NCBI GenBank assembly: GCA_963771275.1
Contig: CAVYSW010000003.1
Location: forward strand, 800,001 to 864,000
DNA length: 64,000 nt
Direction of reading: 5' to 3'
Source of the DNA: an uncultured Gemmatimonadales bacterium
Lineage (GTDB): Bacteria; Gemmatimonadota; Gemmatimonadetes; Gemmatimonadales; GWC2-71-9
Shown here: positions 36,076 through 37,407 of the stretch, piece by piece
Layout of the letters: each line of letters starts with the position of its first letter
Numbering within the stretch: position 1 is the first letter of the stretch
Notes under the pieces: model-generated
The model's database searches: none
The model's input: only the letters and a program-made list of their open reading frames with translations
Told to the model about the DNA's origin: nothing
Translations under genes and position numbers: made by a program

Positions 36076-36216
36076 GCCTAACCGGCGCTTGAAGCTGGCC
36101 GGCCCTTTACGTTCTCGAAGGAAGGGGTCTTTGCTCGCGTGGTAAATGCCTGGGTACGTTCACGCTGCGTTGCTGCTGGCGAGCTAGGGCCGGCAGCTTA
36201 AGCGCAAATCCGTTAG
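36076..36216 (+). repeat. attC whose R' (GTTAG|GC) is interrupted by IS110
   Basis: GCCTAAC...CAGCTTAAGCGCAAATCCGTTAG; continues GCAGCACGCC at 37374. Confidence 0.9.
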
Positions 36217-37172
36217 CAACTGTGTTGAATGCTGGGCGCCGGCACGGCCCAGCGTTGGTTGTCTCGGACCATGGCGTTGAGGACCGTCAGCAGTTTCCGG
36301 GCGCACGCGATCAGCGCGACCTTCTTCGGCTTGCCCGCCGCGATCAAGCGATCGTAGAACACCTTCAGTTGGGGATTCCACCGGCGGCCACAGAGCGCTG
36401 CCAAGTAGAGGGCGGTCCGGACCGGAGCCCGTCCCCCCCAGATCATGCGCTTCCCGCGGAGCGTGCCGCTGTCGCGCGCTAAGGGGGCCACCCCCACCAG
36501 GGTCGCGATCTGCTTGTGCGTGAGGGTGCCGAGCTCGGGCAGCTCGCCGAGCAGGACCGCGCTCACGATGGGGCCGATGCCCGGGACGCTCTGCAGCAGA
36601 TCGTCCTGGGCGCGCCACACGGGGCTGGCTTCGATCTGCGCCGCCAGCTCCCCGGTAACGTCGTCCAGCTGATGCTCCAACCAGCGAATGTGCTGCTGGA
36701 TCCCCCGGTGCAGCGGCCGCGGGGCAAAGCCGAGGCGGTTCTTCTCGGCCACGAGCATCGCGAGCAACTGCCGGCGGCGGGTGAGCAGGGCGTCGAGCAG
36801 CTGGGCCGCCTCGTCGGCCAGGGGCCGCGGCATGGGCCGTACCCGCTCGGCGAACAGCGCCAGGATGGCCGCGTCGATCCGGTCGGTCTTGGCCAACTGG
36901 CCCGTCGCCTTGGCAAAGTCCCGCACCTGGCGAGGGTTCGCCACCACCACCGGGACGCCCGCCGCTGCGAGGGCCGCCACGACCGGGCGCTCGAACCCGC
37001 CGGTCGCCTCACACACGAGCAGGGCGGGCTTCAGCCGCCGCAGCCGCGCCACGAGCTCGGAGATCCCTGACTCGTCGTTGGCGACCTGCCAGGCCTCACC
37101 CGTCGGCCGCCGCGCCACGTCGAGCGTCGCTTTGGCCACGTCCAGCCCCACGAACACCGGCTCGCCACTCAT
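36213..37172 (-). CDS. IS110 DEDD recombinase/transposase
   Basis: GLDVAK, CEATGG, KTDRID, RDSG; stop TAA completed by target DNA; RBS GAGGAGG. Confidence 0.95.
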
Positions 37173-37373
37173 CGCCCCCTCCTCGGAGAACGGCCTCGTC
37201 GCGACCCGACCTTGCCACATGCGGGCTCTCGGCCCCGACCAACTGTTCGGGCTTCCGACGAGTCCTGACGGTGGGCGACGCCCTGGCTAACGGACGGTCT
37301 CGCGGACCCTAGGCAACACGGGCTATCGCCCACCGCAATCTGCTTGCACTTTAGGGAAGAAGCGATATACAAG
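36217..37373 (-). mobile_element. IS110-family element (IS621-like, CT core)
   Basis: AG core at 36215-16 and 37372-73; removing the element restores GTTAGGCAGCACGCC, complementary to GGCGTGCTGCCTAAC at 38210-38224. Confidence 0.92.
37180..37341 (-). ncRNA. Predicted IS110 bridge RNA
   Basis: Two internal-loop hairpins carrying guides that match the target and the donor (see findings); RNA ends approximate. Confidence 0.8.
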
Positions 37374-37407
37374 GCAGCACGCCGGTGAAGATCCAGAACC
37401 GCGCCTG

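Follow-up and report, generated by a model that had tools for sequence, protein, structure and literature searches.

An IS621-like IS110-group insertion sequence with a predicted bridge RNA matching integron attC ends in an uncultured Gemmatimonadales bacterium

A 64,000-nucleotide stretch of the genome of an uncultured Gemmatimonadales bacterium (assembly GCA_963771275.1, contig CAVYSW010000003.1, positions 800,001 to 864,000; hereafter the window, numbered from its first letter) was analyzed and found to carry an IS110-family element of 1.16 kb, with the dinucleotide CT at both its junctions, inserted in an integron attachment site (attC). Judged from its sequence, this is very probably an intact and recently mobile insertion sequence (IS) of the IS110 group, belonging to the branch of IS621 and ISCro4, with a bridge RNA written to the R' ends of attC sites. 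The target held in the first loop of the predicted RNA is xxGYYGC-CT-AACGG, which comprises the R' box GTTAGGC with two spacer bases to one side of it and the beginning of the next cassette to the other; accordingly, the element inserts in attC ends, always in one orientation and antisense to the cassettes. By all predicted features its mechanism is the ordinary one of bridge-RNA elements in the IS110 group, and its target makes it a new example; no new mechanism is proposed.

Element boundaries and genomic copies

An earlier note on this DNA, made from the sequence alone and referred to below as the original prediction, had described an empty target GTGCTGC-CT-AACGGAT and a donor junction ACAGTTG-CT-TGTATAT on the minus strand, and both are present there (Table 1). 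At the left end of the element, 199 nt of non-coding sequence (37371-37173) are situated 5' of the recombinase gene. There is no 3' non-coding end, the recombinase gene reaching the right boundary of the element. An inverted repeat of at least 7 bp between the element ends was not found, the longest one being 6 bp.

The genome (11 contigs, 3.86 Mb) contains exactly two copies of the element, the one in the window and one at C3:4577-5748, with a DNA identity of 100% (a rounded figure) and a protein identity of 99.7%. A tblastn search of the genome with the recombinase at an E-value of 1e-3 returned nothing beyond these two. The identity between the copies spans positions 37378 to 36207 and reaches into GCTGC-CT of the left flank and CT-AACGGATT of the right flank; because it runs into both flanks, the second copy occupies a similar site. 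Both copies are inserted at the same position and in the same orientation in two different attC sites, of which that of the second copy belongs to the main integron array and that of the window copy to an outlying, integrase-free cassette cluster. Other copies at unrelated sites, which the original prediction had named as a finding that would speak against it, were not what was met with, as the second genomic copy and a 99% identical copy of another assembly are located at the same attC position.

Recombinase

The recombinase likely starts at the ATG at 37172. The longer version of its open reading frame (ORF; 36213-37220) has a start at 37220 that would overlap the donor loop. The protein matched the Pfam families DEDD_Tnp_IS110 (PF01548, 2.6e-24) and Transposase_20 (PF02371, 1.4e-18) as well as the NCBIfam model NF033542, 'IS110 family RNA-guided transposase' (217 bits, cut-off 140). 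Matches to PDB entries were obtained for ISCro4 (1e-37) and IS621 (2.3e-36), with the recombinase aligned from residue 15-16 to 319. Residues D27, E71, D113, D116 and S251 align with identical residues of IS621 (D/E/D/D/S), which we take, by the residue numbers of IS621, to be its catalytic positions. The N-terminal DEDD RuvC-like domain and the C-terminal Tnp domain with a catalytic Ser, by which IS110-group proteins are recognized, are both present. The layout is likewise that of the group, with a long non-coding left end upstream of the gene, a short right end and no long subterminal inverted repeats.

The stop codon TAA (36215-36213) is composed of the T of the core and AA from the target (CT|AAC), so that the attC box supplies the recombinase stop codon. 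The same is seen in the clade of relatives with 74-99% identity (ACAGTTGCTAAC). In the excised circle, the recombinase frame would continue into the left end.

The integron and the interrupted attC site

A half-site scan of the genome located attC repeats in arrays at three places, C7:112-5704, C3:493-24800 and an outlying cluster at C3:834-853 kb, which is that of the window. An integron integrase (C7:6294-7232; TIGR02249, 433 bits, cut-off 265) adjoins the C7 array, and no integrase was found near the window's own cassette cluster. The arrays are made up of single-ORF cassettes between sites. The large chromosomal integron array probably runs across the contig break into the start of C3. The integrase at C7:6294-7232 is situated on the same strand as its cassettes and is thus co-oriented with them, not divergent. 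A second integrase-like gene, in two frames (C3:964508-965328), is followed by a lone attC half at 965363 (C3:964508-965382).

The cassette ORFs are located on the plus strand and end just ahead of each attC (e.g. 33394-34074 and 37408-38208), which identifies GTTAGGC as the R' box. Across the insertion, the plus strand of the interrupted site reads GCCTAAC-CGGCGCTTGAAGCTGGCCGGC...GCCGGCAGCTTAAGCGCAAATCC-GTTAG, then the element, then AG-GC, the final GC of the R' box (37374-37375) being left on the far side of the element. The uninterrupted sister sites at 34093-34234 and 45xxx-46030 read ...GTCCGTTAGGC. With GCCTAAC ... GTTAGGC, the boxes conform to the attC pattern RYYYAAC / GTTRRRY around an imperfect palindrome. 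The bottom strand of the sister site 34093-34234, folded over 34088-34240, gave -36.9 kcal/mol (z -3.08), with the boxes paired and single bulged bases in the 3' arm, the canonical position of such bases in an attC bottom strand.

The identification of the target as the GTTRRRY box of attC was borne out by the R' box GTTAGGC at the interrupted site. The further description of this target as the attC crossover site is correct for the box, which is hit, but not for the bond. Integron integrases cross over at G|TT, and the insertion splits GTT[AG]GC, with AG (CT) on both sides and the element antisense to the cassettes; its exchange point at AG/CT thus lies 2-3 nt away from that of the integrase.

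Among the 49 R' ends in the arrays of the genome, 40 read CTAACGG on the strand of the element. As had also been reported originally, GTCCGTTAG recurs in attC R' ends on the plus strand (34224-34232 and 46019-46027). The short pattern CCGTTAGGC, with one mismatch, was not enriched in the window (18 occurrences versus 14.7 expected), so the evidence is the context and not a motif count. The neighbouring cassette was sought in 40 relatives for an authentic empty site and was present in the bacterium's own genome only.

Fold and covariation of the predicted bridge RNA

In the minimum free energy (MFE) fold of the left end, 37336-37325 pairs with 37280-37269 to form the stem of the first loop. Both target words that the original prediction had placed in the internal loop of this stem, GTGTTGCCT (37319-37311) and GTCCGTTAG (37295-37287), are found inside it, and the second hairpin holds ACAGTTG (37246-37240) and CAAG (37214-37211), also as described. 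An alignment of 24 distinct left ends (A1) yielded 27 consensus pairs, 17 of them with compensatory changes. In this alignment 96.5% of the cells pair, compared to 84.0% in column shuffles (reached in 0 of 500 shuffles) and at most 46.8% when the partners were slid by 1-3 columns. For the outer stem of the first loop alone, changes on both sides occurred in 11 of 14 pairs. An Rfam search over 33000-48000 with E up to 1 produced a chance internal ribosome entry site match only and no bridge-RNA match.

Guide strands, targets and element ends

For comparison, 55 loci encoding relatives (L numbers) were collected from species genomes, and the flanks could be read for 41 of them, the remaining 14 being partial matches. 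The relatives are mostly encoded by Gemmatimonadota metagenome-assembled genomes, with 56-99% identity, and further out by Dehalococcoidia, Chloroflexota, Methylobacterium and Gammaproteobacteria. After dropping L016 and L030 (contig without left end) and L029, L047 and L052 (ends not recognised), 38 insertions were tabulated, i.e. the two own copies and 36 loci, with 25 distinct left ends. The right guide was read at fixed alignment columns, and wobble was counted as pairing.

The right target guide pairs 5/5 with its own right flank in 31 of 35 insertions. Cross-lineage combinations gave a mean of 2.76 of 5 (n=840 comparisons), and this control is conservative because many lineages share CTAAC. 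In 14 of 14 further insertions from genomes of the same order the right guide also pairs 5/5, as it does, judged by eye, in L081 and L072. At least 12 different right targets, each with a matching guide, were observed (examples in Table 2). The original prediction had assigned a long right guide to the element. It is indeed longer than the 4 nt of IS621, with 7 nt (core plus 5) according to the covariation rather than 9. The GT/GU located 5' of the 7-mer (37294-37295) is near-invariant in the family whatever the flank, and the GT at the 5' end of the originally proposed 9-mer is therefore read as structure and not as guide.

The left target word, which had been said to match the left target plus core, pairs with the left flank GTGCTGCCT by 8 Watson-Crick pairs and one G:U over 9 positions, and the left guide reaches 9/9 in L012 and L034. 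Five of its seven non-core positions read beyond attC, into the start of the next cassette. When 56 regular-expression site hits (49 in arrays) were scored against both guides, the occupied site of the window ranked first of the 49 array R' sites, with 8 Watson-Crick pairs and one wobble of 9 on the left and 7/7 on the right. Since the right half is near-universal among the attC sites of the genome, site choice must come from the left guide.

The donor-binding loop behaves in the same way towards the ends of the element. The left donor guide changes together with the right end in L015 (ACGGTTG in both), in L039 (ACAGTCG in both) and, by eye, in the G026 family (ACAGGTG). The right donor guide covaries with the left end in three lineages, namely L039 (end TGTAA, guide GCTT..GCAAG), L033 (end CTAGT, guide GCTAG) and L031 (end CTTAT, guide ATAAG); in the window element we infer the register in which it pairs with CTTGTAT. 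As known for the IS110 group, the strands of the target loop are thus complementary to the left target's bottom strand and the right target's top strand, core included, and covary with them, and the strands of the donor loop are complementary to the element ends, except at the core position of the left donor guide. The check that had been proposed with the original prediction, folding of the region and covariation of guides and targets, came out in its favour, as the structure holds in 24 homologues and the guides covary with the targets across lineages.

Table 1. Features of the IS621-like element and its target site in the window
Feature	Position	Strand	Basis or remark
Whole IS including both CT cores	36215..37373	-	junctions read on the sequence; core-to-core length 1159
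IS body between the two CT dinucleotides	36217-37371	-	1155 bp
Left junction	GTGCTGC 37380-37374, CT 37373-37372, TGTATAT 37371-37365	-	read directly
Right junction	ACAGTTG 36223-36217, CT 36216-36215, AACGGAT 36214-36208	-	read directly
Recombinase gene, 319 aa from ATG 37172 (behind GGAGG; likely start)	36213..37172	-	ORF and domain matches
Predicted bridge RNA region, two stem-loops with internal loops	37182..37371	-	MFE fold; alignment A1 (24 sequences) and consensus structure
Left target guide GUGUUGCCU in 5' strand of target-binding loop (7 nt and core CU)	37311..37319	-	match to left flank GTGCTGCCT
Right target guide CCGUUAG in 3' strand of target-binding loop (5 nt and core AG)	37287..37293	-	reverse complement of CTAACGG
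Left donor guide ACAGUUG in 5' strand of donor-binding loop	37240..37246	-	identical to element right end ACAGTTG
Right donor guide AU(GUG)GCAAG in 3' strand of donor-binding loop, discontiguous	37211..37220	-	can pair with CTTGTAT (core and left end)
Left target GTGCTGC	37374..37380	-	GC closes the attC R' box; remaining five bases begin the next cassette
Right target AACGG	36210..36214	-	complement of CCGTT, i.e. GTT of the R' box and CC of the spacer
Interrupted attC body, R'' GCCTAAC to GTTAG of R'	36078..36216	+	half-site scan; hairpin fold with 5 R-box pairs, -29.9 kcal/mol

Table 2. Right flanks and corresponding right target guides in the family
Right flank	Guide	Carrier
AACGG	CCGTT	window element and 74-99% clade
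AACAG	CTGTT	L008
AACTG	CAGTT	L020
AACGC	GCGTT	L021, L022, L026
AACGT	ACGTT	L018, L027
AACGA	TCGTT	L044
TTCAG	CTGAA	Dehalococcoidia
CCTTG	TAAGG (one G:U)	L015
GACCT / GACCC	AGGTC / GGGTC	L031 / L034
CTCCC	GGGAG	Methylobacterium

Sites used by relatives

Nineteen insertions with a CTAAC-type right flank of sufficient length were examined for attC hairpins. Nine of these are located in a strict attC hairpin, defined by a long stem that joins CTAAC to a distal GTTAG (both own copies, L007, L011, L012, L014, L017, L021 and L022). Similar palindromes with a degenerate distal box were recognized by eye at L010, L016, L018, L019, L073 and L082. L008, L020, L027, L037 and L044 lie outside attC sites, no partner box being found there. 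The palindromes vary in sequence among the hosts, and the guide tracks the spacer base after CTAAC.

In G026, ten copies (L083-L092) of a relative with 68-70% identity are all inserted in (T/C)GACGCCxCC-CT-AACGC, without a hairpin. The Dehalococcoidia relatives sit in palindromic repeats, beside long hairpins (L035). As relatives outside attC carry correspondingly different guides, changes of guide have, by the reading of guides and flanks given here, redirected the family among targets that include attC.

Two observations concern individual sites. The word of about 20 bp occupied ten times in G026 is situated 100-150 nt upstream of genes starting with signal-peptide-like sequences. The 99% identical copy L007 lies in an attC, and binning assigned its 1.9-kb contig to Alphaproteobacteria. 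The other close relatives all come from Gemmatimonadota, and the placement of L007 reflects either mis-binning or recent transfer.

Signs of mobility and expression

In four metagenome runs from two studies, the element is present on contigs that differ from it at 2 positions in 429-1132 nt and break at or near its ends, and one metagenome contig runs past 37375 into a different, third left flank. The circle junction was not seen in the contigs of these four runs. A joint that goes back from 37382 to 36078 (side 31) is best read as cross-talk between attC repeats. When the ends were joined in silico, the predicted circle-junction promoter TTGACA-17-TATCTT (10/12 matches) was formed in L015, L023, L025, L033 and L038.

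Weighing of the evidence and alternative explanations

Several observations weigh against an active element guided by its own RNA. Regarding expression, no RNA run is present among the sequencing runs listed as containing the stretch, a sigma-70-like promoter or a terminator was not found within the element, and the circle-junction promoter in the clade of the window element scores only 6/12. Regarding structure, the single-sequence fold of the left end is no better than that of shuffled sequences (z -0.97), and since the homologues are related, the shuffle controls of the alignment overstate independence. The right guide falls short of 5/5 in four of the 35 insertions (L017 and L025 with 4, L033 with 3 and L032 with 2); L032 may be a chimera, because its right end also disagrees with its own donor guide. 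For the left guide the mean match is 5.54 of 7 non-core positions, compared to 4.50 in cross-lineage controls that were permitted the same sliding, a modest excess, and in L019 it shows almost no match. At the core position of the left donor guide, GU stands in place of the expected CU. Finally, the site of the second copy pairs on the left with 6 Watson-Crick pairs, 2 wobbles and 1 mismatch (7/7 on the right) and only ties for about 9th to 15th place among the sites.

The loose match of the left guide could also point to an explanation in which the guides play no role. The recombinase, or a hairpin signal in the DNA, would find the folded attC by protein-DNA recognition, and the matches in the left end would be bystanders, for instance picked-up attC sequence. 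In its favour, the target is a strongly folding palindrome and the Dehalococcoidia relatives are also located beside long hairpins (L035). However, the two matching stretches stand in opposite senses on one strand with a hairpin between them, and no contiguous attC copy is present, for which reason a captured attC fragment was rejected. The matches moreover shift with the target over at least 12 target types, hairpin-less sites included (the ten G026 copies, L008, L020 and L039-L041), and they occupy the loop positions that are guides in the available text on IS621 (PMC11208160). Recognition of this kind is therefore considered quite improbable.

It was also considered whether the present copies are fossils, with guides that once worked in elements now inactive. 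The presence of only two copies in the genome, the weak circle-junction promoter in the clade and the lack of an RNA run among the listed runs are in line with this. On the other hand, the ORF is intact with its catalytic residues kept, the two copies hardly differ, several metagenomes contain copies with 2 differences in other contexts, and the best-matching attC of the genome is the occupied one, all of which makes inactivity quite improbable. The position of the element exactly at a cassette boundary within an array, together with the integron integrase encoded in the genome (TIGR02249, 433 bits), could further suggest a gene cassette or passenger that is moved by this integrase and does not target itself. 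Such a role is extremely improbable: homologues with the same ends are found outside attC sites, and the element carries a DEDD recombinase of its own. An integron cassette as such was rejected on account of the junctions, which are placed at GTTAG|GC with CT/AG on both sides and not at G|TT, and of the lack of an attC of its own. A mobile element directed to attC R' ends by its bridge RNA remains the preferred explanation.

Proposed mechanism and significance

By homology with IS621, the 199-nt left end would be transcribed into a bridge RNA with two internal loops. The first would hold the attC target, and in the second ACAGUUG and AU..GCAAG would hold the excised circle at both of its ends. 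Strand exchange at the CT core by the DEDD/Ser recombinase would follow.

Looking beyond the window, parasitism on attC may have arisen independently in the IS110/IS621 branch, with the R' box written in a 5' bridge RNA. Guides would then co-diversify with the attC dialect of the host (AACGG, AACGC, AACGT, AACGA), U-rich and wobble-capable left guides would reach many cassette boundaries, and lineages would leave integrons by guide change alone, as the ten-copy non-attC family of G026 suggests. We hold the chances for and against this wider scenario to be about even. If it is true, insertions of this type would divide the crossover box, and cassettes in the large chromosomal integrons of soil phyla could become frozen or fused; the insertion splitting GTTAGGC described here may affect cassette excision. 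The element would present a case of convergence with the IS1111-attC elements, one integron target being reached by two branches of the DEDD superfamily whose guide RNAs lie at opposite element ends. Its family supplies about a dozen natural pairs of guide and target, with the right guide 7 nt long and G:U tolerated, for comparison with the engineered IS621 rules. More generally, the findings point to an unexplored interplay of bridge-RNA elements and chromosomal integrons in Gemmatimonadota.

Other elements and cassettes in the window

A second, unrelated DEDD element of the IS1111 type is located at 46582-47943 (+), with its gene at 46684-47741 and about 200 nt of 3' non-coding sequence, and is single-copy in the genome. 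It has an 11-bp subterminal inverted repeat (TGAAAGCGCGG at 46590, complement near 47930) and is inserted at the R''/L'' junction of an attC whose remainder is 47945-48076. As both this and the IS621-like element are present, the window holds both guide-RNA layouts, at opposite attC ends. The other IS110-family ORFs of the window (34710-35474, 46659-47741 and 50678-51550) belong to other lineages. Tblastn with the IS621-like recombinase at an E-value of 1e-3 found neither the IS1111-type element nor the partial ORFs at 34710-35474 (-) and 50678-51550 (-). One of these partial ORFs has only a Transposase_20 domain and the other only a DEDD domain; both are likely to be what is left of additional lineages within this cassette cluster.

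The attC at 38218-38362 ends in GTCAGAT instead of GTTAGGC and is followed by an 18-nt word, GATGACAAGACATCGCTC, that occurs twice (38339-38420). After the repeated word, an ORF of 408 aa with HTH_23/HTH_38/HTH_32 domains is encoded at 38479-39705 (-). Together, 38339-38420 and 38479-39705 (-) are probably another kind of insertion sequence, which also landed at an R' end.

The cassette contents at 46063-46579 (+), 49775-50461 (-) and 52536-53132 (+) include a RelE-like ORF, a Gp49/HigB-like ORF and a BrnT toxin (PF04365, 2.1e-27) that is followed by a small ORF downstream. Such toxin-antitoxin cassettes are usual in chromosomal integrons.

Comparison with known guided elements

According to the available text of the IS621 study (PMC11208160), the left guide of IS621 base-pairs to the target's bottom strand and the right guide to its top strand, both including the core. 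The left guide has 9 nt and the right guide 4 nt, with longer right guides (7 nt) in some orthologues; the right donor guide pairs discontiguously, and rG:dT is tolerated in the natural target. The original prediction had recognized the IS621 bridge-RNA layout in the window element, and the target loop followed by the donor loop, the left guide in sense, the right guide in antisense and the CT core were all recovered, together with covariation across the family. In line with IS621 and ISCro4 (PDB 8wt6 and 9t56), the recombinase is homologous over its full length and keeps the catalytic residues. The non-coding RNA region is situated 5' of the gene, the target-binding loop precedes the donor-binding loop and the core is CT. 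The 9-nt left target guide including the core, the discontiguous right donor guide and the tolerance of rG:dT also agree with what is described for IS621, and the donor-end words are nearly identical (ACAGTTG-CT-TGTAT in the window element). The natural target is different, being the integron attC R' box and not the repetitive extragenic palindromic (REP) elements of E. coli. The right target guide of 7 nt differs from the 4 nt of wild-type IS621, although such lengths are described for other orthologues in the same text. The window element further differs from IS621 in the GU at the core of its left donor guide and in a stop codon completed by the target, and its host, going by the labels of the nearest homologues, most likely belongs to Gemmatimonadota.

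Elements directed to attC are already known from the IS1111 family. In the available text of PMC11187229, ISKpn4, ISPst6 and ISPa25 target one end of attC sites, and a seekRNA whose coding region lies downstream of the gene is co-purified with their transposases, which agrees with the original prediction that the known attC-targeting elements are of the IS1111 type. The parts of PMC11208160 at hand mention attC solely through Post and Hall 2009, for IS1111 elements. In the full-text literature, covered mostly as titles and beginnings of abstracts and without supplements or ISfinder, no IS110/IS621-type element guided to attC was found, and a named example may exist. Like the IS1111-attC group (ISKpn4, ISPst6, ISPa25 and ISPa21, as far as the available descriptions go), the window element belongs to the DEDD superfamily, has its own predicted guide RNA and is site- and orientation-specific at one attC end, as seen in both copies. 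In that group, however, the seekRNA is encoded 3' of the gene with the top-strand match first, and subterminal inverted repeats of 7-17 bp are present. The window element has its non-coding region 5' of the gene and lacks an inverted repeat of at least 7 bp, and its stop codon overlaps the right end, leaving no downstream guide region.

The IS110-type element ISEc21, as described in the same portion of PMC11187229, has its RNA upstream and the order of the two matches reversed. The window element shares with it the upstream non-coding region and the bottom-strand match ahead of the top-strand match. ISEc21 differs in its linear target inside IS3-family transposase genes and in belonging to a cluster of larger transposases (345-385 aa).

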